DNA from: Enterobacteria phage Ac3
DNA length: 64,000 bases
Sequence record: OK040907
Reading direction: 5' to 3' (one strand)
Both the position numbers and the translations under genes were made by a program. The notes under the pieces are model-generated. The model did not search any database. It was not told the DNA's origin and saw nothing but the letters and a program-made list of their open reading frames with translations. Shown here piece by piece: positions 1 to 39,248 of the stretch (within the stretch, counting starts at the first letter, position 1; every line of letters begins with the position of its first letter).

Positions 1-674
1 CCAAATCCCGTAAACTGGACTGTTACACCGAGTCTCATCACATTATCCCGCGCTGCCTGAATGGCTCCGATGACGCGAGCAACCTGGTAGACCTGACCCC
101 TGAGGAACATTACGTTGCACACCAGCTCCTGGTTAAAATTTATCCGTCCGAGCCAAAACTGATTTACGCTGCCAACATGATGACTGTATCCACTAAATAT
201 GCTAAACGCAATAACAAAACGTTCGGTTGGATCCGTCGCAAACTGTGGGAAATCGAAAAAAACAAAGAATTCTCTCAGGAAACCCGTAAGAAAATGTCCG
301 ATGCGGTTGCCAACAAGGCGCGCCTGACCTGCCCGCACTGTGGTAAATCTGGCCTGTCTGGTAACATGAATCGTTGGCACTTCGATAATTGCCCGAACCA
401 CCCGAATCCGAAAGTGCGTCCTCCGATGTCTAAAGAACACCGTAATAACATCAGCAACGGTCTGAAAGCAATTATCCTGGAGGAAACCTCTTGCGAATTC
501 TGCGGTATGATCGGCAAGAAATGCGTGATTGCAGCTCACCGTAACTTCTGTAAGAAAAACCCGAACGGCCGTAAGAAAACCGAGAAAACCGGTACTTGCG
601 TGCACTGCGGTAAAGTTACGACCTTTGGCAACCTGAGCCGTTGGCACAACGACAACTGCAAGCACAAACACTAA
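1..674 (+). CDS. HNH homing endonuclease, C-terminal part (5' end outside window)
   Basis: Frame starting at nt 3 reads SHHIIPRCLNGSDDASNLVDLTPEEHYVAHQLL (HNH motif) then three CxxC...W-x-D/N-NC zinc-finger-like repeats; no in-frame stop upstream; E. coli-type codons. Confidence 0.75.
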   Translation, partial: KSRKLDCYTESHHIIPRCLNGSDDASNLVDLTPEEHYVAHQLLVKIYPSEPKLIYAANMMTVSTKYAKRNNKTFGWIRRKLWEIEKNKEFSQETRKKMSDAVANKARLTCPHCGKSGLSGNMNRWHFDNCPNHPNPKVRPPMSKEHRNNISNGLKAIILEETSCEFCGMIGKKCVIAAHRNFCKKNPNGRKKTEKTGTCVHCGKVTTFGNLSRWHNDNCKHKH

Positions 675-2359
675 TTGATCGTAGCAACGGAGAAACGACC
701 CACTTTCTCCATTTTGATGTGCTGACCGTAGTCCTGTGGGTCGTGGTCTTTGTGGCTGATAATGAAAAAGTTAGTATCTTTCAGGCCATCGAGAATTTTA
801 GCGACGTTTTTGATACCTTCGGCGTCGAACGCGCCATCGTACACTTCATCCAGGAACAGGCAAGAGATTTTTACACCAGAGACTTTTTCGGCGATGTCAC
901 GCCAGGTGAACAGGAGGGCGATATCGATACGTGCCTTTTCGCCTTGGGAGAAGGATGCATAAGAGAAATCTTCGCGGCCGCGGGATTTGATAGTTTCGTT
1001 GAATTCCTCGTCCAGGGTGAAAACATAGTCCGCCTCCATAATTTTCAGATAATGGTTGATCTGTTTGTTGAACAGCGGGATGTATTTCTTAATGATCGCG
1101 CCCTTGATGCCGCTGTCTTTCAGCATGTCGGTCAGGATGCCACGGTGGTATTTTTCCATCACCAGGTTGGTTTTAGTCTTCACGATCTTATCCAGCTCTT
1201 CCTGCAGGAGGGCAATTTCGTCCGCGTGGTCAATGAATTCAGAGGAAGCTTTTTCAATGGCAGCTTTAACTTTCTTAGCTTTGTCAACCGTGGTAATCAG
1301 GGACTGTTTCTTGTTACGAATATCGTTCGCCAGAGACTGTTGGGTCTTAATGTTATCACGATATTCGTCCACCAGGACTTTCAGGTTATCGCGGTGGGTG
1401 GACAGTTGTTCAAAAGAGTGGGTGCATTCGCTCACCTTATCTTTAATTTTGCTCACAACTTTATCACCGCTGGACAGTTGAGACAGGCAGGTCGGACACA
1501 GACCGCCCTCGTGGTACATGTTGATAACTTTGTTGTAGCTATCGATTTTGGATTTAATCAGCACGGCCTCCTGGCCAATTTTGTTAAAAGCATCAGTAGG
1601 GTCTTCGTCCAGCACGATGTTGACCAGACGTTCATTCGCTTCCTCGATTTCGCTTTTCAGGGTACGAGCTTCTTTAGCCAGATCGTCGTACATGTTCTGC
1701 AGGCGCGTCAGGTTGTCACCGGTCAGTTTCTTCTGACGTTCTACGTTGTCGTTGTAGATCTTGATCTGTTGGATAATAGAGTCTTTCTTCACATCCAGTA
1801 CCTGGTTCTGAGAGTTCAGTTCACGGATCAGTGCTTTGTTCAGTTTGTCCATCTCCGCCAGGGTGCCAACCTCCAGGAGGTCTTCGACCAGCTTACGGCG
1901 TGCTGGAGTGCTCAGGCCCATGAACGGAGTGTAACCCGCAGTGCCGAGCACAACAATCTGCTTGAAGCTAGCGTAAGACATACCGATCAGCTGTTCGAAC
2001 TCGGCCTGAAAATCTTTGGAAGAGGCAGATTCGTTCAGACGGGTGCCGTTCACAGTGATTTCAAAGACGTTTGGTTTTTGACCGCGTTTGATGTAATATT
2101 TCTTTTCGTCATATTCCATCCACAGTTCTACCAGGAGTTCTTTCTTATTGGTGCTGTTGATCAGCTGGCCTTTCTTAACGTCGCGGAACGGTTTACCGAA
2201 GAGGCCGAAGGTAATAGCCTCCAGCATGGTAGATTTACCGCCACCGTTACGACCAGTGATCAGGGTTTTCTGAACTTTGTCCAGCTGGATATCAACGCCG
2301 TTCTGGCCTACGCTCATAATGTTCTTGTATTTAACACGGTTCAGTTTAAAGGATTTCAT
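671..2359 (-). CDS. 46: gp46 recombination endonuclease subunit (Rad50/SbcC-like ATPase)
   Basis: 562 aa; N-terminal Walker A GRNGGGKST, central coiled coil with CPTC zinc hook, signature FSQGE, Walker B LFLDEV; partner gene 47 nearby; written in E. coli-optimal codons. Confidence 0.9.
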   Translation of the reverse strand: MKSFKLNRVKYKNIMSVGQNGVDIQLDKVQKTLITGRNGGGKSTMLEAITFGLFGKPFRDVKKGQLINSTNKKELLVELWMEYDEKKYYIKRGQKPNVFEITVNGTRLNESASSKDFQAEFEQLIGMSYASFKQIVVLGTAGYTPFMGLSTPARRKLVEDLLEVGTLAEMDKLNKALIRELNSQNQVLDVKKDSIIQQIKIYNDNVERQKKLTGDNLTRLQNMYDDLAKEARTLKSEIEEANERLVNIVLDEDPTDAFNKIGQEAVLIKSKIDSYNKVINMYHEGGLCPTCLSQLSSGDKVVSKIKDKVSECTHSFEQLSTHRDNLKVLVDEYRDNIKTQQSLANDIRNKKQSLITTVDKAKKVKAAIEKASSEFIDHADEIALLQEELDKIVKTKTNLVMEKYHRGILTDMLKDSGIKGAIIKKYIPLFNKQINHYLKIMEADYVFTLDEEFNETIKSRGREDFSYASFSQGEKARIDIALLFTWRDIAEKVSGVKISCLFLDEVYDGAFDAEGIKNVAKILDGLKDTNFFIISHKDHDPQDYGQHIKMEKVGRFSVATIN

Positions 2360-2374
2360 TTTGTATCCAATTGT

Positions 2375-3240
2375 TTAGAGGCTAGAGAATTCTTTTACCA
2401 GGGCTTGCAGGCTAGCTTCGATCGGATAACCATTTTTCACCAGCATTTTACGGAACATCACGTGTTTAGGACGGTTATAGCTGATCCACAGTTCGTACAG
2501 TTTGTCTTTGTTGTCCCAGTGGTAACCTTTGCGACGGCTGGCAATGTGAGCCTTACGAATCTCCGGATTTTTCCAGCTTGCAGCGACAGAGTTGGAAATC
2601 GGCTTTTGATATTTTGAGACGGGCACAGCGGAGCGAAAGGCTTACGAGTGTTGAGTTTGGTGCGTTTCATGGTCAGACCGTTTGCCAGATGCCACTGGAA
2701 TTTCTGTTTAGTTTTGAAGTTATTCAGACGTTCTTTGTTATCCTTACGGTTTTTCGCTACGGAGAAGTATTTCAGTGCGCGTTCACGAGCTGCATTACGG
2801 TTCTGTGGGTTGGAGTAATACTGTTGCAGGCGTTTAGAAATGGTATCGGAAACATCCTGTTTGATAAAAGAGTATTCTGCCGCAATCAGATCAACTTCTG
2901 CCAGGCTGAGGTTTTTATAGGTTTTGCCAGACATCATACGATTCAGCGCGTTCAGCATTTTACCGTTTTTACCTTTTGCCAGGAGGAAGTGTGCTTTAAA
3001 GTGGTTAAAGTGGCTGAGGTTCACCAGGTTCCAGGTAGATTTGAGATATTCCGGGAAGATAGATTTCGGCAGCACGTGATGTGCTTCGGTCTTGCCCGGA
3101 GTCTTAACGGTGCTGTTAACGCTAATGAAGTTGATATAGGACTTAGCGTCTTCCTCAGACAGCGCCAGTTTTTCCACCAGTTCTTTGATCAGGAATTCAT
3201 CGTTGATGTCCAGTTTGAAGTTTTTAACAAAAGATTCCTT
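2375..3240 (-). pseudogene. HNH (Mob-like) homing endonuclease, frameshifted and without a clear start
   Basis: Upstream frame has AHHVLPKS...NLVNLSHFNHFKAH; coding continues in another frame (SWKNPEIRKAHIASRRKGYHWD...) after an apparent 1-nt deletion near 2600; in-frame stop at 3241-3243 with no ATG before GTG 3177. Confidence 0.6.
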
Positions 3241-3488
3241 TTAATGTATCTTTTAGACCATTCTATCATATCATCATAATCTAAAAAGTATTCATCAAAT
3301 TCAGCCATGCAAACAACGCCTTGTGCTGTTTTTGATGTAATATAAATTATTCCAACATATCTAGAATCTTCTTCGGTATAATCAATATTTGCTATAAATT
3401 CATCATTAATGTCAAATGTCGAAAACTTCACAGTATGCATCCTTAATACAAGATACAGCCATATCTCGTAATGATTTAGGTGTGTCAT
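3189..3488 (-). CDS. hypothetical protein (3' end runs into recoded block; boundaries uncertain)
   Basis: 99-aa ORF, AT-rich; contains FDINDEF...EED motif also present in the adjacent HNH remnant; overlaps 3412..3675 in another frame. Confidence 0.35.
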   Translation of the reverse strand: MTHLNHYEIWLYLVLRMHTVKFSTFDINDEFIANIDYTEEDSRYVGIIYITSKTAQGVVCMAEFDEYFLDYDDMIEWSKRYIKRNLLLKTSNWTSTMNS

Positions 3489-3675
3489 TATCTAAAATGT
3501 TGAAGTTAAAAGATACAGCCCAGTCAGTGCAGACCGTAACCTTTTTAATACAATTATCTTCAACCTCTAACGGTTCAAACCAATATTCAATAATTTCTTT
3601 ATGCCCAATATCATCTTTTACTTCGCATTCAAAATGCTGACTCATCATAACATTTTTAAATTCATCAAAAGTCAT
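3412..3675 (-). CDS. hypothetical early protein
   Basis: 87-aa ORF immediately downstream of gene 47, start overlapping its stop. Confidence 0.5.
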   Translation of the reverse strand: MTFDEFKNVMMSQHFECEVKDDIGHKEIIEYWFEPLEVEDNCIKKVTVCTDWAVSFNFNILDNDTPKSLRDMAVSCIKDAYCEVFDI

Positions 3676-4691
3676 TGTGTTGCCTCTACATATAACTGAT
3701 TTGCATATTGAATAAGTGCTTCGCGGTCAGAATCAGTGATGTCTGGAATTGCATTAATGTATTCTTCCATCAACGTCTGAAGAGATTGAACTTCAACTTC
3801 TTCGCTTTCATCTGACTCGACAGAGTTATCAATTTTTGACACAACTCGTAATGAATGCACAACTTTTTCTAGTTCAGATTCGAACTTCGTCAGATTTTTG
3901 TCTACCTCAGTTACTATAACACGTACTGATAGATTTGTAAAATCTTTATAGTCAATTTTTCCTTTAAATGGATAATGAATTCTACGATGCCAGGTAGTAT
4001 TGTTTGGAATAAATTCCATTCGTTCTGTTTCTGTATCAAACATCCAGAACCCGCGAGGGTCATTCTCGTCACCTGCAGTTAGTGTCCATGGTGTCCCAAT
4101 ATATCTGACGTTTGCAGCCTCAGAAATAGTATGGAAGTGACCAGACCACACTTCTTTATAAGTCTTAAGGAAATCAGGTTCAAGACCGTGAGATTTCATT
4201 CCTTTATAAAAATAAAATCCATTCAGTTCCCAGTGACCAACACAAAAAGAAGCAGATGAAGTTTTTATGTGCTCGAGAATTTCACCAGTATTTTCTTCAC
4301 ACATCCAAGGAATTAAATCAATTAAACATCCGTCAAAATCTACTGTAGTAGGCTTATCATATACTTTAACATTAGGATATTTAGCCAAAAGCTCAGTAGA
4401 GGCATTTGGAGTTAAAGTATTTTTAAAGTGCATATCATGGTTTCCTACAACAGTATGTAGGGTAATACCAGCATCATCAAGCATTTGAACTATTTCACGA
4501 GCGAACTCCATAGTTTTATGCGTGATTGCTTTTCGCACATCAAAAATATCGCCATATTGAATCCAGGTAGTAATTCCATTTTTCTTAGAATATTCTATTG
4601 CTTGTTTAATTCCATCCAACTGAATGGATTGAACCCACTCGTCATCGGCTTTAACGCCTAAATGCCAATCACCTAAATTTAAAATTTTCAT
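3672..4691 (-). CDS. 47: gp47 recombination endonuclease subunit (Mre11-like phosphoesterase)
   Basis: 339 aa; metallophosphoesterase motifs GDWHLG, GDIFD, GNHD; adjacent to gene 46. Confidence 0.92.
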   Translation of the reverse strand: MKILNLGDWHLGVKADDEWVQSIQLDGIKQAIEYSKKNGITTWIQYGDIFDVRKAITHKTMEFAREIVQMLDDAGITLHTVVGNHDMHFKNTLTPNASTELLAKYPNVKVYDKPTTVDFDGCLIDLIPWMCEENTGEILEHIKTSSASFCVGHWELNGFYFYKGMKSHGLEPDFLKTYKEVWSGHFHTISEAANVRYIGTPWTLTAGDENDPRGFWMFDTETERMEFIPNNTTWHRRIHYPFKGKIDYKDFTNLSVRVIVTEVDKNLTKFESELEKVVHSLRVVSKIDNSVESDESEEVEVQSLQTLMEEYINAIPDITDSDREALIQYANQLYVEATQ

Positions 4692-4852
4692 ATATCAAGA
4701 ACCGTCATTGAAATGCAAAATAAAATTATTGAAATAAACCCATCTGGTGTGCTAAAGAACCCAATCCAACATGCTCTAGTGAATAGATAAAATGCAAGAA
4801 AAAGTATCACATATCCAAGAAATATCATTATATCAAACTCCGTATAAAGCTA

Positions 4853-4866
4853 AAGGGCCGAAGCCC
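4853..4866 (-). terminator. stem-loop terminator after a-gt
   Basis: GC hairpin AGGGCCGAAGCCCT with flanking T-rich run. Confidence 0.45.
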
Positions 4867-4867
4867 T

Positions 4868-6070
4868 TTATTTTGTAATAATGTCAAACTGTTCTTTAAA
4901 GCAGAAGCTTGAATCTTGATGCTGATACAAAAATTCATAAGCTTTTTCGCGTTCGCGGTCATAAAGAGTTCGGTCAGATGACAGTTCTTTAATACGTTCA
5001 AATGTTGATTCCATGTCATTTTCATCAAACCAAATGATACCGCTATCATGCGAGGTCAAAGGAGTATTATCAACACGGAATTTTAAATTTTCGCCAGTAG
5101 ATTTCCAAAATACCGGAATTGTTCCACATGCACCAAGCTCGAGATGAGTATATTCTAAAGAACGTTGTAGATATTTTTTATCCAACTTACTCAACTGATA
5201 ACCAAAACCGGATTTACTCATACGTTCAAGCATTTCGCTATTTACATAACGGTCAAGAATTTGCGTTGGCAAATTAGGAGCAATTTTAATTTGGTCTACT
5301 TGATGAAGACGATAATACTCGTATGGAATTCCTTTTTCTTTAATAGGAATGAACGCTGGAGAACGTTCCAGACCTTCCATAATAGTACTTAGTCCTGCAG
5401 GTTTAAGATGTTTTTCGTGAAAATCAAACATCTGATAAAAACCTTTCCATGTAGTCGTACGACCAATCCAACGGTTGATATTCATGTTAATTTCAGAAAC
5501 ATCTTTCCAGTAAGTTGACCGAACCTTCGCAATATCCATAGGAGGCTGAAAGTTATATACGGTCGGTGCTTCTTCAATATCATCAAACAGAGAAACAGTT
5601 TCTGGATACCACTCTTTCATCAGAACTTTATTAAAATCACCATTATCAGAATGGCTAAAAATAACATCAGCTCGACGAACAGTTTCTTCTAATCCCAAAT
5701 TTCGACGCAAAGAAAGAGAAGAATGGTCATGCTGATAAACTACAACACGAACAGAAGGTTTAATATTATCAATAATTTTTTTATAGTTATTAATAGTGTC
5801 TTCTTCAACCGAAGTAGCAGGAACTGAATTGATAATTAGAATATCACAATCATTTACCAGCTTAAGTGTTTTATCGTATTCTTTTGCCAATAAAACCGGA
5901 ATTGAAAATGATTTATAATCATGCGCGCAATTACGAGTAAATGATTTATCTTTAGCATAAACCAAAGTCACTTCATGACCATTTTTAATAAACCAATCAC
6001 GTTGCTCGAGTGAGAATTTTGTTACACCACAACCTTCAAGACCTCGAGCCATAAAAATACATACTTTCAT
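4868..6070 (-). CDS. a-gt: DNA alpha-glucosyltransferase
   Basis: 400 aa, length and sequence match T4 AGT (MRxCIFMARGLEGCGVTKFSLEQRDWFIKNGHEVTLVYAKD...). Confidence 0.9.
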   Translation of the reverse strand: MKVCIFMARGLEGCGVTKFSLEQRDWFIKNGHEVTLVYAKDKSFTRNCAHDYKSFSIPVLLAKEYDKTLKLVNDCDILIINSVPATSVEEDTINNYKKIIDNIKPSVRVVVYQHDHSSLSLRRNLGLEETVRRADVIFSHSDNGDFNKVLMKEWYPETVSLFDDIEEAPTVYNFQPPMDIAKVRSTYWKDVSEINMNINRWIGRTTTWKGFYQMFDFHEKHLKPAGLSTIMEGLERSPAFIPIKEKGIPYEYYRLHQVDQIKIAPNLPTQILDRYVNSEMLERMSKSGFGYQLSKLDKKYLQRSLEYTHLELGACGTIPVFWKSTGENLKFRVDNTPLTSHDSGIIWFDENDMESTFERIKELSSDRTLYDREREKAYEFLYQHQDSSFCFKEQFDIITK

Positions 6071-14148: not shown

Positions 14149-14319
14149 TTAGTTGCGCAGCTTATTCAGTTCCTCGTCATCGATCCAAGACTCCAGACCG
14201 GACGGCAGAGCACATTCGATCTCCCACAGGAGTTCCTCAATTTTCTGCAGGCGATCCAGTTCCTCAGCCGGGATGGTCACCATGGACGGTGCACGGCTTA
14301 CGTTAATGTCATAGATCAT
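14149..14319 (-). CDS. small acidic hypothetical protein (E. coli-optimal codons)
   Basis: 56 aa MIYDINVSRAPSMVTIPAEELDRLQKIEELLWEIECALPSGLESWIDDEELNKLRN; below the 60-aa ORF-track cutoff; island bounded exactly by its start and stop codons. Confidence 0.5.
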   Translation of the reverse strand: MIYDINVSRAPSMVTIPAEELDRLQKIEELLWEIECALPSGLESWIDDEELNKLRN

Positions 14320-17442: not shown

Positions 17443-17471
17443 TATACCACATCCTTGTGGTAAAGTAAACT
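17440..17471 (-). promoter_or_regulatory. T4-type early promoter
   Basis: minus-strand GTTTAC -35 and TATAAT -10. Confidence 0.4.
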
Positions 17472-18495
17472 AGTTCAGTGCATTTAATGCATTGTTCAGT
17501 TTAGAACGTTGCTTCGTGAGATTTTTGACTTTTTCTTGTGCTTTTTCTAGCATCTTTTCAGCTTCTAACACTTCATTGGTCGCTTTAACGAGTTCATCAT
17601 CTACTGCCTTGATAGACTTCTCAATCGCATCCGCGTGCCATTTTTCAACAGGTTTAAGACTCGGATTTTCAATAGGAAGAAAATTCACTTTATTGAATTT
17701 CCATGCATCCTTATTACCTGAACTATACATCCAAAATTTAGGATCGTTTGATGAGTAATTGGATAAATTTAAATTTAAGTTATCTTGCACTTCCTGCTTC
17801 TTCTCTTGCGTGACTTCGTCCTTTCTCAAAAAATCATATTTAAATGAAACAATCATATCAAGTTCATATGTTGTTGTGTCTAATTTAAATCGTTCGAAAT
17901 GCTGTGAAATCTTAGACCGAACAGCGGCAACAACATCCATATACTTAAATGCTTCTGTCAACTGTGATTTAAGGCATTCACAAATTGAAAGAGAATTTTT
18001 TGTATTAGGTTTAAAGCTAATTCGTGCAGTTCTATTATTTTCTTTTAATGGTCTTACTTCCATCTGAAGAGTATAACCATCAAATTTCAAGTTCTTTAAG
18101 TTAATATCAGAACCTTTTAATCGACTAGCAGTTGATAAAATTTGCTTTAATTGTCTACGGAACAGAGCAATAAATCTCCATTCAATACGATAATGATTTG
18201 GATTGAAAAATCCAGATGATAAATCGACCTTACTCTGACCAACACCTTGAACAAATAGAGGATTTTTATAATCAATAGTTTTACAGAAATCGGTGAGCTG
18301 CTCACGAGCAGTCATTTGTGTAATATATCCCGCTTTACTAAAATGACGTAACCATTCACTGCTATTCATATACTTAAAGTGAATGGAACTATTAACTCTA
18401 TCAGGGTCTAAATTATTTTGGCACAAAAATGTCATAACATCACGAGTATAGCTGGCATTACGAACCATATCTTCAATTTGAGAACGAGTTTTCAT
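17470..18495 (-). CDS. hypothetical protein with C-terminal coiled coil
   Basis: 341-aa ORF. Confidence 0.55.
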   Translation of the reverse strand: MKTRSQIEDMVRNASYTRDVMTFLCQNNLDPDRVNSSIHFKYMNSSEWLRHFSKAGYITQMTAREQLTDFCKTIDYKNPLFVQGVGQSKVDLSSGFFNPNHYRIEWRFIALFRRQLKQILSTASRLKGSDINLKNLKFDGYTLQMEVRPLKENNRTARISFKPNTKNSLSICECLKSQLTEAFKYMDVVAAVRSKISQHFERFKLDTTTYELDMIVSFKYDFLRKDEVTQEKKQEVQDNLNLNLSNYSSNDPKFWMYSSGNKDAWKFNKVNFLPIENPSLKPVEKWHADAIEKSIKAVDDELVKATNEVLEAEKMLEKAQEKVKNLTKQRSKLNNALNALN

Positions 18496-18503
18496 AGTGT
18501 TCC

Positions 18504-19409
18504 TTAAGATTTAAGTAAATCAACAATTTTAATTAATTTTTCACGCTCAGATTTAGCTTTATTACTCAATCCAGATAGTCTGAAAATTTCATCGTCATAC
18601 TGTTGAATAGAAATATTCAGCTCTTCAATTTGCTTATTAAAATAATCAATTTGCTCAGAATGTTTTTCGTTACTACGAACTGGTACAGGGTTTGTAGGCA
18701 ATTTAGTTAAACTGGATTCATCCGGGCGATAAATTAAAATGCAATTTGAACCAATCGGGCATTTAGCACCAGATGAATATTCTAACGTTCCAGCTTCTTT
18801 TAAAACTTCAAAAGCTAAACAGAGATGATGCCCCATATTAACATAATCTGTAGAGTGAGCTCTGACGTAATAATCATCTCCACGAGTACTAAATTTAAAG
18901 CATTTAAGGTCTTCTGTATTATTAGTTTTAAAAATCATTTGTTTATCTAGACCTTTAGCCAATCGAGCACCTAATGCTAATAATCGTCGTTGATTTTCCC
19001 ACAAATCCGCAATCATTTGATCGAATGACAATTTCGGCATTAGTCGACCATAAAGGTCATATCCTTTATTATAATTGCGAAGAATTTCACTCGCGTTAAT
19101 GCGAGACAATGCTCCAATTTTATTAAGGGCTTTCATGATGCGATTAGATAAACTCATTCCAGACCCATTTGTTCGCTGTAAATGTTTTTCTAATCCAAAC
19201 CCAATATCAACTTTAAATTTATCTAAAATTTCAGCATGAACATCTCTGTCAATAACATTCAAATCCAAAGTTGGGTTAAATCTATGAAAAAATTTATCTG
19301 GCTCTCCACGACGAAATACAGTCCATTCATTCATCATTTTTTTATTAACTAAAGATTTAATTACTGCATTGACATTATTAATTACTACTGACATATTTTT
19401 CTCACTCAA
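18504..19409 (-). CDS. hypothetical protein with C-terminal coiled coil
   Basis: 301-aa ORF. Confidence 0.55.
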   Translation of the reverse strand: MSEKNMSVVINNVNAVIKSLVNKKMMNEWTVFRRGEPDKFFHRFNPTLDLNVIDRDVHAEILDKFKVDIGFGLEKHLQRTNGSGMSLSNRIMKALNKIGALSRINASEILRNYNKGYDLYGRLMPKLSFDQMIADLWENQRRLLALGARLAKGLDKQMIFKTNNTEDLKCFKFSTRGDDYYVRAHSTDYVNMGHHLCLAFEVLKEAGTLEYSSGAKCPIGSNCILIYRPDESSLTKLPTNPVPVRSNEKHSEQIDYFNKQIEELNISIQQYDDEIFRLSGLSNKAKSEREKLIKIVDLLKS

Positions 19410-19810
19410 TTTTCAATTTTACTAAATACACAGAATATGATGGAAAAGACTATATAAGCACCGCACACAGATTGAACTAATACCATTCCAAAGAACCAAA
19501 TAATATTATCAAACAGTGTCTGTTTTACGTCGAAAGGACGTAAACTTACAGTAATATTATCACCTTTTTCTATTGAAGAATACATCTCTGGTGAAATATA
19601 TTCACTAAATCTATAACCGTCTTTGAGTTCATATACAGCAATAAACGATAAACTAGACCCCTTTCCTTGAGTTCCTGTAAGGGTATTAACTACAGTAACA
19701 TCATAATCTTTATAATGCATATAATCATTAATTGCGTAATAACCATATGCAACTACTACACATAAACAACATATCAATAAATTCAATCTTTTAATTATCA
19801 ACTGTTTCAT
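19406..19810 (-). CDS. membrane protein
   Basis: 134 aa with N- and C-terminal hydrophobic segments. Confidence 0.5.
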   Translation of the reverse strand: MKQLIIKRLNLLICCLCVVVAYGYYAINDYMHYKDYDVTVVNTLTGTQGKGSSLSFIAVYELKDGYRFSEYISPEMYSSIEKGDNITVSLRPFDVKQTLFDNIIWFFGMVLVQSVCGAYIVFSIIFCVFSKIEN

Positions 19811-19865
19811 AATAATCTCAATTAAAAGGGCTTAGAACCATTATACCATCCTTGGTATAAAGCGG

Positions 19866-20393
19866 TTATGCGAGTACCGTCTTTAACCGTTCTTCAAACT
19901 TCCGAAGAGTATTCTGGCGTTCAGCTCTTTGCTTTTTGTAAGTTTCAATACGCTCTGAAATGAGATTGTATCGTTCATTTACTGTTTCTTTCATAAAATC
20001 AGGAATTTCACGAGAAGCTTTAATCTCGTCAAATTTATCAATAACAGCTTGCTCTTCAGCAATTAAGTTATCATACATCAAAATATCTTTCTTGATGAAC
20101 TCAATATCTTCTTGAGTTACACGAGATAACTTAGATGCTTTATCCTTTTTGTACTGTTCGTTAGTATCACGAGACCAGTGTAATGTACGATTTTTATTCG
20201 TATTCTTGTAAATTTCTACAATACCAATCTCATCGATAATAACGATCCAATTCCAACGGGATTTGTAAATTTGTCCTCCATCAACAGTGATTTCACCACC
20301 GATTGAGACATCATTAAAGAACTTGCTTTGAGCTTCAGATTTAAATTTACCATCATTGTAGTTTACCAAGTTGAAAATATCTTTAGCATTCAT
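19866..20393 (-). CDS. hypothetical protein
   Basis: 175-aa ORF downstream of an early promoter. Confidence 0.5.
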   Translation of the reverse strand: MNAKDIFNLVNYNDGKFKSEAQSKFFNDVSIGGEITVDGGQIYKSRWNWIVIIDEIGIVEIYKNTNKNRTLHWSRDTNEQYKKDKASKLSRVTQEDIEFIKKDILMYDNLIAEEQAVIDKFDEIKASREIPDFMKETVNERYNLISERIETYKKQRAERQNTLRKFEERLKTVLA

Positions 20394-20419
20394 TTTCTGT
20401 TCCTCCGTAGTTGATAGTT

Positions 20420-20452
20420 GTATAGTATCACAGAGGAACAGTCTTGTAAACC
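20420..20452 (-). promoter_or_regulatory. T4-type early promoter
   Basis: minus-strand GTTTACA, spacer, TGTGATACTATACAACTATCAACTA module. Confidence 0.45.
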
Positions 20453-20453
20453 A

Positions 20454-20768
20454 CTAAAAGAAACTTCTTTCACAATTTTTTCCACTGAACCACGCGCTCA
20501 CTGCTTTCTTAGTCTCAGGAGCAGTGTTATCCATAAACCATTCAAAGGCAGCCTTTTTATGATTCTGGAGGGCTTCTCGGGCTTTAATCTGCTCACGGTC
20601 TATTAACACTAACATATGAGCCTTTCTTGTCACCAGGGGCTTCTTATGATTTTTTGAATATTCCCAATCATTTGTCCATCGCATTGTTGTTGCGAACTGA
20701 AATACTGCTTCTTTAATTTTAGTTTCATAAATTTCACGAGCCTTTGAGTATAACATCATTACCTCCAT
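20454..20768 (-). CDS. hypothetical protein
   Basis: 104-aa ORF. Confidence 0.5.
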   Translation of the reverse strand: MEVMMLYSKAREIYETKIKEAVFQFATTMRWTNDWEYSKNHKKPLVTRKAHMLVLIDREQIKAREALQNHKKAAFEWFMDNTAPETKKAVSAWFSGKNCERSFF

Positions 20769-20838
20769 TTACCAGTTTAATTCTAGTCATCTTTTTGATG
20801 GCAGTCCATATAATCTATTTCTGAACTGCCTTTTTGTC

Positions 20839-21558
20839 TTAGGATTCTTCTAAATGTCTTTTCTGAAAAGTTGATACCATACTACGATACGGTTCATTTG
20901 GATATCCGTGTTTTATAGCTTCCTTTGTAAATTTTCTCCATCCATATTTAGTTTCTTTCCAAAGCTCGAATAATTCATCTTCATATTGCCATATAGTTAA
21001 ATGAGAACGCTTTGCAGCTTTAATTCCATTAATATGCTTTTCTTTTACTACAGGATTGCTTAGTTTCTTTTTAATAATATTACTAACTTTTCTAACAAAA
21101 ACTGGGTCCTTATATCGTTGCGAAGTTTTTATTGAAGTGTTTAATTTAGCTTCCGGCGTGGATGTGACCTCTTTCATCTTTTTCTTCATATGCTGTATAT
21201 GATTAGGATTTTTCCATAAATTTATAGAATGCTTTTTGCATTTTATCCTAGTTTCATCTGCAACCTTTCCTCCTTCACCCCCGTATGACAGGTTAACACA
21301 GTTTTTTCCATATTTCAATTTACCTGCCATGATATATAATATTTCAGCTTGTACCATTTTATCATAATTATCAAAAACTTCTAAAACCGTTTTTGATAAT
21401 ATGTGGTCATTTGACACTTTTACACGTTCTATATAATTTCCACTACCAACATACGAATCATTGATGTTATTAGTTATATGTCGACCATAATAGTATTTCT
21501 TAATACCTGTCTTTAAATTTAATATTTCAGTTTTATAGATAGTAAAATATTTTTTCAT
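20839..21558 (-). CDS. GIY-YIG family homing endonuclease (Seg-like)
   Basis: N-terminal IYKTEILNLKTGIKKYYYG GIY-YIG-like motif with downstream R and E; basic C-terminal half. Confidence 0.5.
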   Translation of the reverse strand: MKKYFTIYKTEILNLKTGIKKYYYGRHITNNINDSYVGSGNYIERVKVSNDHILSKTVLEVFDNYDKMVQAEILYIMAGKLKYGKNCVNLSYGGEGGKVADETRIKCKKHSINLWKNPNHIQHMKKKMKEVTSTPEAKLNTSIKTSQRYKDPVFVRKVSNIIKKKLSNPVVKEKHINGIKAAKRSHLTIWQYEDELFELWKETKYGWRKFTKEAIKHGYPNEPYRSMVSTFQKRHLEES

Positions 21559-22523
21559 TTTAATAATACCGTTTCAGCGATTTCTTCCCAACCGTTTTTG
21601 TCGGTCATAATAAAGTCAGCAAGATAAAGTGCAGTACGCAGTGAAACATTACGTAAACGATTAACATTGACTTTCATCCATGATAATGCTTTATAAGTTT
21701 CTTCATCAGAAAGACCGCGCTTTTGCATCATGTCGGTTGAAAGAATAACATCTTCAACCCTGACCATAATTTCTTCATTAGTGTGAACACCCAAATCCAA
21801 ATAAACTGAGCGGGACACTAATGCTTGTAAATGTGGAGCAAGTTTAGTACCACGGTCTAATTCGCGGTCAATGTCAACGTTTGTGATAAAAACAATCGTT
21901 CCTTTAAATTCAAACTCACGCTCAATGCCTTTTTCTTCTAAGTAAGAAGATGCGGTGCTCCAGCAGACTTTACGGGTCTCTCCAGTGTCCAGAGCAGCTT
22001 TCAGAAGATTAAGAATGTCCATATCAGAGAAAACATCCACATCATCAATCAAAAGGACAGAATTCTCTTCACGATTATTCCAAAGCTGTTCATAAAGACC
22101 AATACCAGAGATTTTACCATTAATGCTTTTATACTCAATGTATCCAATATCATTTGCTTTATTTAAAGCTTTATCTAAAGAATACGTTTTACCAATACCT
22201 GCTGCTCCCGAGATAATTAATGAACGAATGTTTCCGTTAATAATACCATTCGTCATCATTCCCATAACATTAAATCTTTTATTAATGCGGGTTTTCATAT
22301 CTTCATACGATTCTTTAACTTCTTCAACTTTTACACCATCATATGAAATGTCTGATTTGTAAACCCAAACACCGCGACGCTTACCGTCAATTTCAACAAA
22401 AACTTTACCATCTCCTTGTGCATCTACCGGAGCATTATCTGGGAACCATTCGCCTAAGAGCTCAAAAGTTCCAGAGATTTCTTTACCGAAGTAGATACCC
22501 TTATTGATAGTTACAGTTTTCAT
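21555..22523 (-). CDS. P-loop NTPase (AAA-like ATPase)
   Basis: Walker A GAAGIGKT, Walker B LLIDDVD; ATG 22523 preceded by GGAGAA SD and lying downstream of the promoter; ORF track extends to 22589. Confidence 0.6.
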   Translation of the reverse strand: MKTVTINKGIYFGKEISGTFELLGEWFPDNAPVDAQGDGKVFVEIDGKRRGVWVYKSDISYDGVKVEEVKESYEDMKTRINKRFNVMGMMTNGIINGNIRSLIISGAAGIGKTYSLDKALNKANDIGYIEYKSINGKISGIGLYEQLWNNREENSVLLIDDVDVFSDMDILNLLKAALDTGETRKVCWSTASSYLEEKGIEREFEFKGTIVFITNVDIDRELDRGTKLAPHLQALVSRSVYLDLGVHTNEEIMVRVEDVILSTDMMQKRGLSDEETYKALSWMKVNVNRLRNVSLRTALYLADFIMTDKNGWEEIAETVLLK

Positions 22524-22555
22524 TTTATTCTCCAAATCTGTATCAGTTGATAGTT

Positions 22556-22588
22556 GTATAGTACCATAAAGCTTTATGCTTGTAAACA
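22556..22588 (-). promoter_or_regulatory. T4-type early promoter
   Basis: minus-strand TTTCACAAAGTTGTTTACA (-35) and TACTATACAACTATCAACTGA (-10 region). Confidence 0.5.
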
Positions 22589-22616
22589 ACTTTGTGAAAA
22601 ATTTTTGAAATAAAAA

Positions 22617-22634
22617 AGGGAGCCCGAAGGCTCC
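22617..22634 (-). terminator. rho-independent terminator
   Basis: hairpin GGGAGCCTTCGGGCTCCC followed by TTTTT on minus strand, just after the NTase stop. Confidence 0.55.
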
Positions 22635-22637
22635 CTA

Positions 22638-23648
22638 TTACTTATAGTAGGAGCGGTGGTTCTCCAGGTAAACTTTTTCCAGAAAGTCATCCCAGAAACC
22701 CATGTCAACCTTTTGCTGCATGCCATTCTTGGATGCTTCCGTGCTCGCAGCCTCCACCTGATCAACTACGTCCTCGAGGAATTCCTGCACGGTTTTGAAC
22801 GGGTGCTTGCCCAGTTTGACATCCAGGATAAACGGCGCATCCTGCAGTGGGTAGATCAGGTCGCCGGTTTTGTAAATTTCCAGGAGCTGCAGGCCACCGC
22901 GGCATGCATGGGACAGAGCTTTCCAGTCGATGCCTTCGTTTGCCTCTGCTTTGCGGGCGCGTTCGCCGTATTCAGCATCCAGTTTATTCAGGGATTGTTT
23001 CAGTTCGATCAGGCTCAGGGTAGTCTGATATTTACGACCCAGCACCGTATAGAAAGTTTGCGGGCCGGTTTTTTCGTGGTTGTGAAACACCCATTCACAG
23101 AATTCGTTTTCCGGCAGGCGGTGTTTGATATCTTCGATTTTGGTACGGCGTTGACCCTGAGTGCCGTCTTCGCGATAAACGTTGCGCTGGTCCGGGATCT
23201 GATTCACGACTTTCAGGACGTCGCGCAGAGCGGCCAGACGGGAGCCCTTAACACCATATTTAGAGGCTTGTTTGCGTACATAGCCCAGGTAAGATTTCAT
23301 ATTGGTAGTGTAGAAGCGGCTGCGGTTGTCCTGAATGAATTTCCAAACGTCAGGCAGATCGCTCTTAACCACCAGTTCTGGCGGCGTATGCAGCATGTCG
23401 AGTGCCACGGTCTCACCGTCCGCAGCCAGTTTGAAAAAATACTTGAGGCTATACAGTTCGTGGTCGATGTCATCTTTGGTATTCTTGCTAGAGGTATTGT
23501 TGGTGTTTTTAGACATGTGTTCTTTCACGTTGCCGATCAGAATGTCACGTGCCGGTGGCACGAAGATCTCTTTGAAGTCGACATCGCTTTCCGGGGTGGA
23601 AGTGCCGTACAGGTGGCTGCCAAAGTAGGATTTCATCACAGTCTTCAT
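22638..23648 (-). CDS. Pol-beta-superfamily nucleotidyltransferase
   Basis: 336 aa; N-terminal GSHLYGTSTPESDVDF (GS...DxD NTase motif) with later acidic residues and helical C-terminal region; E. coli-optimal codons; start overlaps upstream stop (TAATG). Confidence 0.65.
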   Translation of the reverse strand: MKTVMKSYFGSHLYGTSTPESDVDFKEIFVPPARDILIGNVKEHMSKNTNNTSSKNTKDDIDHELYSLKYFFKLAADGETVALDMLHTPPELVVKSDLPDVWKFIQDNRSRFYTTNMKSYLGYVRKQASKYGVKGSRLAALRDVLKVVNQIPDQRNVYREDGTQGQRRTKIEDIKHRLPENEFCEWVFHNHEKTGPQTFYTVLGRKYQTTLSLIELKQSLNKLDAEYGERARKAEANEGIDWKALSHACRGGLQLLEIYKTGDLIYPLQDAPFILDVKLGKHPFKTVQEFLEDVVDQVEAASTEASKNGMQQKVDMGFWDDFLEKVYLENHRSYYK

Positions 23649-24109
23649 TATTCAGCTTTGTATTCGATCACCGGACACACTTTCGCTTTGCGCGCTTTCA
23701 GGAACTCAACAATGATAGATTTCTTCGGTTGGATTGGCGGCAGGCCTTTGTAAGCGCGATCGATGTTTTCAACGTGCAGCGCGTAATCTTTCTTCCATTT
23801 GTAGTCTTTGTATTTCTCACGCAGGTGCGCCGGAATCACGAAGGAGCCGATAATCAGGAGAACCACCAGGAGTGCCAGAATGAACGCGGATGGCAGGAGG
23901 GTCCACAGGCTACCGAAGATCAGCCAGCGCTGCAGGGATTCAGCACAGATAATAGTCAGACCAACCAGGATGGCACAACCGAAGATGGAAACGAAAAACG
24001 TCGGGATGGCGATAGACCAGAAGTACGCGCACAGGGTTTTAGGGCGCTGCCACTCGTCGTTAAACAGTTTGAACAGCTTATAGTGCCAAGAGTTTTCATT
24101 AATGATCAT
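23648..24109 (-). CDS. small membrane protein coupled to the NTase
   Basis: 153 aa, 2-3 hydrophobic helices then basic tail; AAGGA SD; E. coli-optimal codons. Confidence 0.6.
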   Translation of the reverse strand: MIINENSWHYKLFKLFNDEWQRPKTLCAYFWSIAIPTFFVSIFGCAILVGLTIICAESLQRWLIFGSLWTLLPSAFILALLVVLLIIGSFVIPAHLREKYKDYKWKKDYALHVENIDRAYKGLPPIQPKKSIIVEFLKARKAKVCPVIEYKAE

Positions 24110-24111
24110 AA

Positions 24112-24633
24112 TTATCCTTTCATTGAAGGCGTAACGGTTGTTAAATACTTAATCATAGCTTCAGCTTCTGATTTTGATAATGAAATTTCTCCATTGCTTT
24201 GACGAATAGAAATAAAATCCGGATGACGGTCACCACCAGCTTTTAAAACACACATATAAGTATCAACTTCGCCTTCAATATTTGAAATGATTGAAGCAGT
24301 TCCACATGAATGCGGTTTTTGATAAATCAATACAGCTTTTCTTCCACCATTTGACTGTTCATAGGCTTTTAATACATCAAACAAATCAGTTCTTTTATCA
24401 ATAGCTAAAATGTTATTTTCATCTTCAATGTTAAATCCTTCGGATACTTCATAAAGCGTTACCCATAAATCACCGATGTCAATAACAGCATTTACTTTTC
24501 CACAGCTTTCAAGAGTATGACAAATTTTCTTGATTTCGTCATAACTCATTTTAATAATATCATCTCCTTGGCTAAGAAAGATGTCATTTTTAAATTCAAC
24601 ACGAATTAAACCACTTCCACTTGAAATAAACAT
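24112..24633 (-). CDS. hypothetical protein (paralog of 24640..25185)
   Basis: 173 aa; shares GFNIE...and C-terminal ...EA.A(M/L)K.YL..V.P(S/T)M tail with neighbour. Confidence 0.55.
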   Translation of the reverse strand: MFISSGSGLIRVEFKNDIFLSQGDDIIKMSYDEIKKICHTLESCGKVNAVIDIGDLWVTLYEVSEGFNIEDENNILAIDKRTDLFDVLKAYEQSNGGRKAVLIYQKPHSCGTASIISNIEGEVDTYMCVLKAGGDRHPDFISIRQSNGEISLSKSEAEAMIKYLTTVTPSMKG

Positions 24634-24639
24634 ATTTCC

Positions 24640-25185
24640 TCACTTTGAAATCATAGTTGGAATAACAGAATCAAGATAAGTCTTTAGTGCAATAGCTTCG
24701 TCTTTGGTAAATGTAATGATATGTGATCGAAAATCGTCAATTTGACGAATAGATACTACATCTCCCTCTTCATAGCATTTTGACACATTTAAAATAGTTT
24801 CATCATTCTGATTGCAAGCGTTAGTAATAATAGCATTGCAATTTTTAAACCATTTTAAACTATGTTTTCTTTCATTAGAATAATAAAAATATTTAATCTT
24901 ATCTATAAAACTATCCCAATGGATAACTGATAAGCATATTGACTCGCTTTCAATATTAAATCCTGGGCATGAAGAATAAAAATGAATTTTATGCTCATCA
25001 TTAATGCTTACAATTTTATCAGTATAAGGATTTTCAATTTTGGTTAAATGAATGATTTCACTAGGCGTAAAATACAGCATATCGTCTTCTTGTGTCAAAC
25101 GATACATATTATTTACTTTTTCTATAGCCAATTCACCAAAAAGTGAACTAACTTCTAATACTAATCGTTTCGCCTCGCTCATCAT
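24640..25185 (-). CDS. hypothetical protein (paralog of 24112..24633)
   Basis: 181 aa. Confidence 0.55.
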   Translation of the reverse strand: MMSEAKRLVLEVSSLFGELAIEKVNNMYRLTQEDDMLYFTPSEIIHLTKIENPYTDKIVSINDEHKIHFYSSCPGFNIESESICLSVIHWDSFIDKIKYFYYSNERKHSLKWFKNCNAIITNACNQNDETILNVSKCYEEGDVVSIRQIDDFRSHIITFTKDEAIALKTYLDSVIPTMISK

Positions 25186-25512
25186 TACATACTCCTTTGA
25201 ACCATATCAATAATGTTATTCACCAGATTATAAGTAAACATTGGGTAATTATATTGAATCATCACATACACAACAAACAAAACTTTCATTCTCTTCTCCT
25301 TGGCAGTTGACAAGATTACTATACCATAACCTTGCCAACTTGTAAACCATTAAATGGCGTTTTCAATAAAATTCTGAAGCTTTGTGTGAGCATCAACCAT
25401 GATTTTCATTTCTTCTTTGGCGAAAGCTGTACCTCTTTCCCGAGAAGAACATTCATAGTCAGAAACTGCATTAGCATATTCTTCGATTAGTTTCATTAAA
25501 AACATCTGTTTT

Positions 25513-25707
25513 TCAGTTTTCATTATTCCACCTAATCATTTCAAGATATTGAACTAACTTAGCTTTAGATTTATCCAAATCCTTTTTAGCTGCTTCTATA
25601 CCGTCGTATGAATATCCTTCACAATGCTCAACTGCTAATTGATATGAATCTATTTCAATATCACGTGCTAATTTAATGATTTTTTCAAACTGTTCGCGTG
25701 TTAGCAT
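25513..25707 (-). CDS. hypothetical protein
   Basis: 64-aa ORF. Confidence 0.45.
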   Translation of the reverse strand: MLTREQFEKIIKLARDIEIDSYQLAVEHCEGYSYDGIEAAKKDLDKSKAKLVQYLEMIRWNNEN

Positions 25708-25709
25708 AC

Positions 25710-25949
25710 TTACACTCTCGTATTATGATCGATAATTTCATCAAGAAACATATCTAACGCTTCTATAGCATTATCCACTTTAGTTTCAAAGTCTTTAATG
25801 CCTTTATTCGAAATACCCGATGAATACCAAGCAAAGTCAATCAGCTCTTCATCTGCTTTACGAATTGAAGCCACTAATTCCTTGATTTTATCTGCTTGCT
25901 CTATACTAATCATTATTCCACCACATATGACAGAGAGAATATTGCACAC
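25710..25949 (-). CDS. hypothetical protein
   Basis: 79-aa ORF. Confidence 0.45.
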
Positions 25950-26146
25950 GCCATGTGAGTTGCAACTTCATCACACATATTATAACGTTTCTTAAGAAGT
26001 TCTACAAGTTCTTCACTAGTAACTTCATCCATGTCGACGAAAAAATCACCATTAATGATGACGTAGATATTTCCTTCTTGATTGAGTGCTTCAATTTTCA
26101 TGATGTTCTCCTCTTTATCTGATAGTTGTATAGTATCACAGCTCAA
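25913..26146 (-). CDS. hypothetical protein
   Basis: 77-aa ORF downstream of an early promoter. Confidence 0.45.
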
Positions 26147-26160
26147 ACGGAAAGTAAACC
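26128..26160 (-). promoter_or_regulatory. T4-type early promoter
   Basis: minus-strand GTTTAC -35 and TGTGATACTATACAACTATCAGA -10 module. Confidence 0.45.
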
Positions 26161-26168
26161 GGTAAAAT

Positions 26169-26192
26169 GAAAAAAGTCTCCCGAAGGAGACT
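26169..26192 (-). terminator. rho-independent terminator
   Basis: hairpin AGTCTCCTTCGGGAGACT followed by TTTTTT on minus strand. Confidence 0.5.
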
Positions 26193-26196
26193 AATG

Positions 26197-26583
26197 TTAT
26201 TCGAGGGAAAGAAGATACTTACTCTGGTAAAACATTCCAGTAATATCATCTATCGTGCTTTGAATGGCTGGAGGCATTTCTTTATAAATGCTGTTAGATT
26301 GGTCTAGTATGCGATCAATCATTTTAATTGTGTCGGTAGGAAGTTTACTGGCATCTGGAATTGAAGGTGTGTATTTTCTACCAGAATACCCCAAATATTG
26401 CTCACCAAATTTATCAATCAAATCTGGCAACTCGGAGAAAATAAAATCGTATGCTTTGTGTCTAGCATAACTTTTAGTTTCAAAATGTGCAGAATGAAAA
26501 TAAGCTTGTGCAGCCATTAATAAACCTAAGTATTCATCTGCCTTTGAAGGTTTTCCACTTTGTGAAAAGTCGCTGAATTTCAT
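26197..26583 (-). CDS. hypothetical protein
   Basis: 128-aa ORF. Confidence 0.5.
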
Positions 26584-26873: not shown

Positions 26874-26885
26874 AAAGGCCTCCTA

Positions 26886-27098: not shown

Positions 27099-27140
27099 AT
27101 ATACCCCTTTAGTTAGATAAACCTATTTATAACTTTTGCA

Positions 27141-27722: not shown

Positions 27723-27731
27723 ATCACCTTC

Positions 27732-28083: not shown

Positions 28084-28514
28084 TTATTTCGGTTTACCTT
28101 CCTTCACGAAGTCTGGGTACGGATAAAAGCCAGAGTAGAAACCTTCGCCTTTGTGGTTGATACAACCTTTGTTGGAACAATAGCACCAGTAATCGAAATC
28201 GCAAGCCATTTCGTCGTTGCACAGGGCGAAAACGACCGGCCATTTACATTTTTCACAGTGCGCGTTTTTCAGGATGGAAGTCTGGGATACCGCCAGGTGA
28301 CTTTCAGGCAGTATTCCTCCACATGCTGTTTGCGACCTTTCTTGTCGATGAAGGTGTATTCAACGAAGGTACCGATGTAATCTTTATCCACGTCGTGCGG
28401 AGAGTTGATCGGGCACTTAGTACGGCAGATGCGTTCCCACTGACGAATGATTACAGCCTTGTTTTTCGGGTCGAACGGGTGTGGATAATGTACTTTTACA
28501 GCAGCGGCTCCCAA
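28084..28514 (-). pseudogene. Cys/His-rich putative zinc-binding domain, disrupted by frameshifts (probably once fused to the upstream macro domain)
   Basis: Coding in E. coli-optimal codons switches frame near 28292-28297 (..KVTW / AVSQTSILKNAHCEKCKW..); its start has no ATG and overlaps the macro gene stop, where re-inserting one G would fuse the frames. Confidence 0.5.
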
Positions 28515-28963
28515 TCAACGATTACGATTTCCAGTTTGGAAGAATAGGTGTCCAGGATACCTTCAATGATGTCCCAGTTGCCTTTACCGATGCCGGCGCC
28601 GATGCGCGGCATGTAGATGGTTGGTTTGATCAGTTTGTTTTCACCGAATTCGTTCAGCTCCAGCATACAATTCATCAGCGCAGAATATTCAAAGTTTGGG
28701 CCCGGCTGGAACTGAGTGTACAGGTTAAAACAGTACGCTTTGTGGGTGCGAAAGTACTTTTCATACACGGAGTAGCTACCCAGTTTAGTCACGTCGCCCC
28801 ATTCGGTCTGCAGCTTGTCAGCTTCCAGGATTTTCGGAAACGCTTTGGTCAGCTGACCGGCTACACCCGCTTTCATGGTATGGAAGCAGTTACAGCCGTG
28901 AGCGATGTTTTTACCTTCGGCAAACAGCGCTACGATATCGCCTTTGATGTATTTGACAATCAT
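28496..28963 (-). CDS. macro domain protein, TARG1/OARD1/DarG-like (putative ADP-ribose hydrolase)
   Basis: 155 aa; KGDIVALF...HGCNCFHTMKAGVAGQL...MPRIGAGIGKGNWD matches TARG1-family macro motifs; E. coli-optimal codons; ATGA overlap with upstream gene. Confidence 0.7.
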   Translation of the reverse strand: MIVKYIKGDIVALFAEGKNIAHGCNCFHTMKAGVAGQLTKAFPKILEADKLQTEWGDVTKLGSYSVYEKYFRTHKAYCFNLYTQFQPGPNFEYSALMNCMLELNEFGENKLIKPTIYMPRIGAGIGKGNWDIIEGILDTYSSKLEIVIVDWEPLL

Positions 28964-33479: not shown

Positions 33480-34448
<969 letters not shown>

Positions 34449-34467
<19 letters not shown>

Positions 34468-35289: not shown

Positions 35290-35683
35290 TCAGTTCTGGC
35301 TTTTGCAGCGGCTCTCTTTTACGAATTTCATGATTTCATCAAATTCGTGAGCCGCCAGCTTCAGCTGGTGTTCTTTCTTGATTTTCTTGCACTGCGCTTT
35401 CCAGTCACGAACACGTTTGCGATAATGACGACCCTGGTACCAGTAACCGATCCAGTTGATCGGCACGAGCAGGAGCGGAACCACCAGCGGCAGGATCAGG
35501 GTAGCGCCGAAGATTGCGCCGGATTCGATATCAGTCATAACGTCGATAACCATACCGGCAATAACCAGAATAACAAAAGAGACCACAACCACCGGACCGA
35601 TCAGCACGTCAGTGGAGATAATTTGGCGCTTCAGTTCGTATTTCAGTGGTTTGCTCGGCAGGTACAGAGACGGTTTGGACATA
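35290..35683 (-). CDS. membrane protein (same family, E. coli-optimal codons)
   Basis: 130 aa from ATG 35683 (MSKPSLYLPSK...), two hydrophobic helices, basic tail ending ..ESRCKSQN; ORF track extends to 35703 through native sequence. Confidence 0.55.
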
Positions 35684-39230: not shown

Positions 39231-39248
39231 ATTTTCCTCACTTATAAT

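Follow-up and report, generated by a model that had tools for sequence, protein, structure and literature searches.

Rewriting of coding sequence with the protein left intact is well known from gene synthesis, in which weighted-random back-translation redraws every codon independently, omits rare codons (AGA, AGG, ATA, CTA, TTA, GGA, CGA, and others), brings the codon adaptation index (CAI) to the level of ribosomal-protein genes, and ends genes mostly on TAA. In phages, large-scale synonymous change with the protein kept is documented for the T7 capsid gene, for the whole PhiX174 genome, and for a synthetic recoded T7; these reports deal with small phages and mostly with de-optimization or viability-preserving recoding (PMC5592923, PMC7881332, PMC12814771). 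Among natural systems, the mosaic or hyperplastic regions of T4-like phages show sharp local drops in identity on a near-identical backbone. Here we describe a 64,000-nucleotide (nt) stretch of Enterobacteria phage Ac3 (sequence record OK040907; hereafter the window), in which five islands of coding sequence bear a likeness to each of these systems. An initial annotation, made from the sequence alone, had noted islands of E. coli-optimal codon usage in an AT-rich T4-type genome, beginning with a block of gene 46 between two HNH genes, and had suggested that selected genes were synonymously recoded, back-translated, or replaced by engineering. Our analysis indicates that eleven coding sequences (CDSs) of a genome of the RB51/RB68 lineage have very probably been codon-optimized in place by a scripted routine, and that the islands are an artificial, not a natural, feature.

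Comparison of the window with phage RB51

To place the window among known phages, positions 1-6000 and 22000-25000 were used as megablast queries against 50,697 phage records. The top matches were Enterobacteria phages RB51 and RB68; each aligned without gaps in one piece, shifted throughout by exactly 32,000 positions, but identity was only 86.5% and 88.1%. A position-by-position comparison of the window with RB51 (NC_012635) positions 32001-96000 showed the two to be of equal length and colinear, with no insertions or deletions (indels). All 1,513 differing positions were substitutions; 1,510 of them fell inside five blocks (2-3226, 14152-14314, 22639-24104, 28085-28955, and 35291-35677), in each of which 22-26% of the bases were substituted (about 24% overall), and the remaining three were isolated single-nucleotide polymorphisms (SNPs). 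The blocks were bounded by CDS ends, with 100% identity to RB51 directly outside. The island coordinates of the initial annotation were off by no more than a few bases, apart from the end of the first island, which coincides with the CDS end at 3228 and not with 3240; the last recoded CDS ends at 35682.

Synonymous and memoryless codon replacement

Codon changes were counted in a clean set of 1,994 codons lying outside overlaps, window versus RB51. Of these codons, 1,270 had changed without a single amino-acid change, at a nucleotide identity of 75.8%, which bears out the proposal of synonymous recoding or back-translation. In nine of the eleven CDSs, amino-acid differences from RB51 were confined to overlaps with a recoded neighbor, the exception being the two open reading frames (ORFs) of a split endonuclease described below. 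For gene 46 (671..2359, minus strand), the combination of high protein and low nucleotide identity that recoding predicts was found as anticipated: the protein was 100% identical to that of RB51 at 74.9% nucleotide identity, with 370 synonymous and 0 non-synonymous codon differences. As a natural control, gp46 of phage LF82-2 showed 75.8% nucleotide identity to RB51, 81.9% amino-acid identity, 102 non-synonymous codons, and a G+C content at third codon positions (GC3) of 0.31.

The choice of new codon was independent of the old one. The pooled chi-square for new versus old codon was 62.2 on 61 degrees of freedom (p = 0.43; 18 amino-acid families), and 724 codons were unchanged versus 749 expected under independent drawing. 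Serine codons crossed without restriction between AGY and TCN, and leucine, whichever of its six codons had stood there originally, was written as CTG and CTC at about 87:13. Sixteen sense codons (ACA, AGA, AGG, AGT, ATA, CCC, CGA, CGG, CTA, CTT, GGA, GGG, TCA, TCG, TTA, and TTG) were used 0 times in the clean codons of the window, whereas the same genes use them 375 times in RB51, and the fractions of the remaining codons were close to those of E. coli ribosomal-protein genes. The pattern is that of weighted-random back-translation from a high-expression table without rare codons, and it is unlike that of mutation and selection.

The truncated table also left its mark on the opposite strand. 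The codon-aligned antisense frame contained 0 stops in all 11 recoded units and up to 29 in RB51, because the table has no TTA, CTA, or TCA, whose reverse complements are the three stop codons. Open antisense stretches at 614-2617, 2485-3279, and 22614-23753 do not occur in RB51, and the ORF at 641..2617, which had been flagged as an artifact of a nearly stop-free antisense strand, was indeed present. The long antisense ORFs of the islands are artifacts and should not be reported as genes.

Composition and codon usage of the islands

Base composition changed at the islands. The G+C content was 0.44-0.51 across 1-3200, compared with roughly 0.30-0.40 elsewhere in the window, with other peaks at 22800-24000 (0.50-0.53), 28000-28800 (0.44-0.49), and 35200-35600 (0.47); the 171-bp island at 14149-14319 was too short to stand out at the resolution of the profile. 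With 27 E. coli K-12 genes (ribosomal-protein genes, rpoA, and tufA; own CAI averaging 0.70) as the reference set, the 11 recoded CDSs had CAI values of 0.69-0.79 and GC3 values of 0.55-0.65, while the 96 untouched CDSs had a mean CAI of 0.37 (standard deviation 0.08) and a mean GC3 of 0.25 (maximum 0.37). From RB51 to the window, the same 11 genes rose from a CAI of 0.35 to 0.73 and from a GC3 of 0.24 to 0.60; for gene 46 the corresponding values were 0.37 to 0.73 and 0.23 to 0.61. Gene 46 of RB51 contains 6 AGA, 10 ATA, 3 CTA, 18 TTA, and 4 CTG codons, whereas the window version contains 45 CTG codons and no AGA, AGG, ATA, CTA, TTA, or TCA. The five islands first recognized from the sequence alone are therefore real, with steps in G+C content, CAI, and GC3 at the reported loci in place of a uniform composition, and the early reading of gene 46 as free of AGA, AGG, ATA, and CTA next to a gene 47 with native codon usage was accurate.

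Three untouched genes, e.8, 57A, and vs.6 (37513-37776, 42468-42710, and 31141-31503, respectively), had CAI values of 0.60-0.69, yet their GC3 was 0.22-0.31; these genes show what natural codon adaptation looks like in an AT-rich genome. The native tRNA cluster (38620-40655) was identical to that of RB51 and, following the RB68 annotation, comprises Arg-UCU, Asn, Tyr, Ile/Met-CAU, Thr, Ser, Gly, Leu-UAA, and Gln tRNAs together with rnaC and rnaD. The phage thus supplies, among others, tRNAs for AGA and TTA, two of the codons eliminated by recoding.

Gene junctions and the order of rewriting

The edits were limited by CDS coordinates and blind to other reading frames and signals, as evidenced by a start codon treated as an ordinary codon, by broken starts and stops in neighboring genes, and by an overlap whose content depends on the order of rewriting. 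The GTG initiator (3228-3226) of the ORF at 2602-3228 became the valine codon GTT; as a result, the overlapping stop of gene 46.1 (3225..3227, minus strand) changed from TGA to TTA, and 46.1 reads on to 3189. The convergent ORF054w was rewritten later than gene 46, and its last His codon then went from CAT to CAC, which turned the gene 46 stop from TAA into TAG. The change of the ORF111c stop from TGA to TAA turned the start of ORF110c from ATG into ATA. Collateral effects of e.4 recoding included conversion of the e.3 start from ATG to CTG (35306-35308) and a K5E change; e.5 acquired six C-terminal amino-acid changes, lost its stop (35651-35653), and reads on to 35609. In all, collateral damage removed the stops of 46.1, tk.3, and e.5 and the starts of ORF110c, tk.3, ORF111c, and e.3.

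Native signals had been described as lying directly outside each island. This held for the spacer with the ribosome-binding (Shine-Dalgarno, SD) region of gene 46 (2360..2374, minus strand), which is identical to RB51 although it lies between two recoded CDSs, and for a native terminator-like hairpin directly past nrdC.11 (22617..22636, minus strand), also identical to RB51. It did not hold where neighbors overlap the recoded CDSs, since their starts, stops, and SD regions were hit.

The 94-nt overlap (2602-2695) of the two endonuclease ORFs, neither of whose proteins is kept in the window, can be accounted for only if rewriting took two passes in succession and the later one re-translated sequence that the earlier one had altered. 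In a dynamic-programming test, overlap intermediates built solely of table codons were sought for each order of rewriting. The order 2375-2695 then 2602-3228 gave 4 solutions out of 2.3e11 possible recodings; the order with the N-terminal endonuclease ORF first was impossible under the model, as no table-codon intermediate existed. The stop of the 2602-3228 ORF was lost in two stages: the first pass changed TAG to TCG, and the second, reading TCG as serine, wrote AGC. The junction of tk.3 and ORF111c obeyed the same order logic, with tk.3 rewritten first and ORF111c second, and here too the reverse order was impossible under the model. After the final pass, every unit held table codons only.

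Two simpler descriptions of the routine were rejected. A recoded unit for ORF111c beginning at its annotated start (28290) leaves the CGG codon at 28292 unexplained, while a start at 28296 accounts for it; 28296 is an in-frame ATG two codons upstream of 28290, and its use shows that the routine's gene calls were not those annotated in RB51 or RB68. A rule that stops always become TAA was ruled out by e.4, the stop of which changed from TAA to TGA.

The sequence shows how the routine worked. It translated the current sequence of each CDS interval literally, reading an initiator GTG as valine, and for every residue picked a codon at random from an E. coli high-expression table minus the 16 rare sense codons, with stops drawn mostly as TAA. 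The recoded result then overwrote the same coordinates, and the CDSs were handled one after another on the evolving string with overlaps ignored. These sequential, overlap-blind passes corrupted neighbor starts and stops, embedded SD regions, and the two-ORF overlap.

Search for the recoded DNA and for the backbone

The recoded DNA was found in none of the public collections searched. Positions 1-3240 had no megablast match in 5,426 E. coli genomes and none in 72,556 plasmids, and an origin as host-derived or foreign DNA was rejected. Exact 40-mers of gene 46 and nrdC.11 were absent from IMG/VR, the gene 46 40-mer was absent from JGI metagenomes, and the nrdC.11 40-mer was absent from GTDB genomes. 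By megablast, no relative in the phage collection carried the recoded alleles; natural relatives with the same DNA, which would have spoken for an evolved origin, were thus not seen in the collections searched. The e.5 read-through protein had no recorded match, and a literature search turned up neither a recoded RB51, RB68, or T-even genome nor any mention of sequencing run SRR15600129.

The three isolated SNPs relative to RB51 were all non-synonymous: T>C at 17918 (minus strand; nrdC.5 Q193R), C>T at 51140 (plus strand; gp7 S195L), and A>G at 60975 (plus strand; wac D456G). The first is shared with a public contig, the second is private to the window (the gp7 S195L variant protein had no recorded match), and the third is the RB68 allele. 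RB68 was ruled out as the exact backbone, because the window carries the RB68 allele only at 60975, has the RB51 base at 31050, and differs by two further SNPs. By these alleles, the backbone belongs to the RB51/RB68 lineage as a third member, one missing from the phage collection.

The nrdC.5 Q193R variant was encoded on one public contig, Logan SRR15600129_34, which was compared over 11 kb corresponding to window positions 17443-28495 (block 3 and part of block 4). Over this interval the contig differed from RB51 only at 17918, whereas 444 positions distinguished it from the window, every one of them within block 3 or block 4. A real sample that shares the 17918 SNP therefore carries native genes over 17443-28495.

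The recoded genes

The recoded units are 11 whole CDSs in runs of 4, 1, 2, 3, and 1 neighbors, all within the first 36 kb of the window, and no functional theme was seen among them. Families were assigned with Pfam (cut-off E <= 0.01) and PHROGs. In the first run, ORF054w (1..674, plus strand), a mobB-like homing endonuclease gene whose start lies 40 nt upstream of the window, differed from RB51 by 153 nt and 0 amino acids and matched PHROG 655, 'homing endonuclease' (E = 2e-68), and PHROG 12434, 'HNH endonuclease' (E = 1.5e-10). Gene 46, encoding a Rad50/SbcC-like recombination nuclease subunit, differed by 424 nt and 0 amino acids.

The other two units of this run are the parts of the split homing endonuclease. 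The C-terminal ORF (2375..2695, minus strand; 106 aa in RB51) was changed synonymously up to 2599 and non-synonymously above; in the window its ATG has become GTG, an internal TAA has appeared, and its first 32 codons have been overwritten. It had no Pfam or PHROGs family match. The N-terminal ORF (2602..3228, minus strand; 208 aa, with a GTG start in RB51 and RB68) matched PHROG 655 (E = 4e-36) and PHROG 12434 (E = 4.6e-16); in the window its C-terminal 30 amino acids are altered and its stop is lost. The HNH labels originally given to the genes on either side of gene 46 find partial support: they agree with the PHROGs homing and HNH endonuclease families of ORF054w and the 2602-3228 ORF but have no counterpart in Pfam, as neither ORF matched any Pfam family at the cut-off. 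In RB51 itself, positions 34375-35228 (window 2375-3228) hold a frameshifted homing endonuclease as two overlapping ORFs, 2375-2695 and 2602-3228 in window coordinates. This split gene is unannotated in both the GenBank and RefSeq records of RB51, in which the tags ORF059 and ORF060 are skipped, and the RB68 annotation differs, giving 2375-2491 and 2602-3228.

The second run is ORF081c (14149..14319, minus strand), which encodes 56 aa, belongs to a PHROG family labelled 'antitoxin' (2.7e-40), and differed from RB51 by 39 nt and 0 amino acids. It also had a weak match, below the curated cut-off, to the T7 gp5.9 RecBCD-inhibitor family (PF25708, E = 4.8e-4; PHROG 6234, E = 7.5e-4), which is a possible lead on its function.

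The third run consists of nrdC.11 (22638..23648, minus strand), an RlaP-type nucleotidyltransferase gene (PF10127) with 251 nt and 0 amino-acid differences, and ORF096c (23648..24109, minus strand; 153 aa, function unknown) with 108 nt and 0 amino-acid differences; the stops of both changed from TGA to TAA. In the fourth run, ORF111c (28084..28296, minus strand), encoding a zinc-binding phage protein (PF23895), was recoded from the upstream in-frame ATG at 28296, and both of its ATGs are gone (CTG at 28296, GTA at 28290). Its neighbor tk.3 (28287..28499, minus strand; DUF7202) had its start changed from ATG to GTA and its stop lost through the passes over adjoining genes, and tk.4 (28496..28963, minus strand), which encodes a macro-domain protein (PF01661), showed 111 nt and 0 amino-acid differences and a stop changed from TGA to TAA. 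The fifth run is e.4 (35290..35682, minus strand; 130 aa, function unknown).

Discussion

Taken together, the data argue for scripted codon optimization of eleven CDSs in place. Nothing in the sequence contradicts artificial recoding, and codon optimization by back-translation is an operation of a kind already known. We infer that the window sequence most likely exists only in silico, whether as a design or as a spiked test sequence, and is not the outcome of evolution. Several points qualify this view. The collection scans consisted of two 40-nt exact probes and megablast, so that copies in other collections would escape. The usage of arginine (CGT:CGC about 1:1), glycine, and valine codons is somewhat off the ribosomal-gene reference, and the backbone is byte-identical to no record in the phage collection, as it carries two private SNPs and one RB68 allele. 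Finally, a phage made physically to this design could prove viable, since the genes that were damaged are accessory and are not known to serve essential T4 functions.

The last of these points leads to the alternative that fares best, although we consider it unlikely: an unpublished phage of the RB51 lineage in which the eleven early-region genes were physically swapped for synthetic E. coli-optimized versions produced by a naive script, and which was then sequenced. Possible aims would be a study of codon and tRNA dependence or evasion of sequence-directed defenses. The outer SD sequences and terminators were left intact, the gene 46 protein and its ribosome-binding region were kept, and the backbone SNP at 17918 occurs in a real laboratory sample; moreover, recoded and codon-deoptimized T7 and PhiX174 have been made before (PMC5592923, PMC7881332, PMC12814771). 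Against it, four neighbor starts, three neighbor stops, and the endonuclease ORF's own GTG start were destroyed, and an already corrupted frame was re-translated, neither of which would be expected of a designer who started from the proteins. The recoded DNA and the chimeric e.5 protein occurred in no public assembly searched, the searched literature held no recoded RB51, RB68, or T-even genome, and the SNP-sharing sample SRR15600129 was native over the covered blocks. It would also be a major undertaking to make five scattered multi-kb replacements in a T-even phage, whose DNA is modified. If true, this reading would make the window the first case of a T-even genome synonymously rewritten at multiple loci.

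Far less probable is an assembly chimera, in which reads from plasmid-borne, codon-optimized phage genes were co-assembled with phage reads. Laboratories commonly keep codon-optimized clones of phage accessory genes, but the replacements are perfectly in register, with neither vector sequence nor an indel, native spacers are kept between adjoining recoded genes, and the plasmid collection gave no match. The overlaps, furthermore, record sequential recoding of one genome string, which independent back-translation of native proteins would not produce.

Natural acquisition, whether by recombination from a higher-GC relative or host or through strong translational selection for host-optimal codons, might draw on the mosaicism of T-even genomes, the homing endonuclease genes flanking gene 46, and the few native genes (e.8, 57A, and vs.6) of raised CAI, but it has a very small chance of being correct, given 0 non-synonymous against 1,270 changed codons where comparable natural gp46 divergence brings 102 non-synonymous ones, new codons without memory of the old and 16 codons exactly absent, block ends that coincide with CDS ends and 100% identity just outside, broken starts and stops in neighbors, native high-CAI genes that stay at a GC3 of <=0.31, and alleles carried by no relative and by none of the other genome or metagenome collections searched.

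Scripted recoding, the explanation preferred here, makes the islands biologically minor: they reveal no new natural mechanism, and the proteins are unchanged except for accidental C-terminal corruption of the product of the 2602-3228 ORF. Their significance lies in data hygiene, since genome scans should flag such islands as manipulated sequence and not as horizontal transfer, host-derived genes, or translational selection. A possible general check for recoded DNA would look for zero non-synonymous alongside saturated synonymous divergence, for new codons independent of the old, for truncation of the codon table, for an absence of stops from the codon-aligned antisense frame, and for order-dependent corruption at gene overlaps.

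Comparison with known systems

The islands share with natural T4-like mosaic regions the sharp local drops in identity on a near-identical backbone, and homing endonuclease genes lie on both flanks of the first island; natural replacements, in contrast, bring amino-acid changes and indels and keep an AT-rich composition, whereas here there were 0 amino-acid changes, 0 indels, and a GC3 of 0.60. The likeness to the T7 and PhiX174 studies lies in the scale of synonymous change with the protein kept, and the difference in that the present case is an optimization, set in a 168-kb T-even genome, with damage to neighboring genes and with neither a publication nor reads found. Gene-synthesis back-translation is matched in its preserved protein, independently redrawn codons, absent rare codons, ribosomal-protein-level CAI, and predominance of TAA stops. 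Unlike gene-synthesis optimization of isolated genes, however, the operation was applied in place on genome coordinates, with alternative starts, overlaps, and embedded ribosome-binding sites ignored and with successive passes acting on an evolving sequence.

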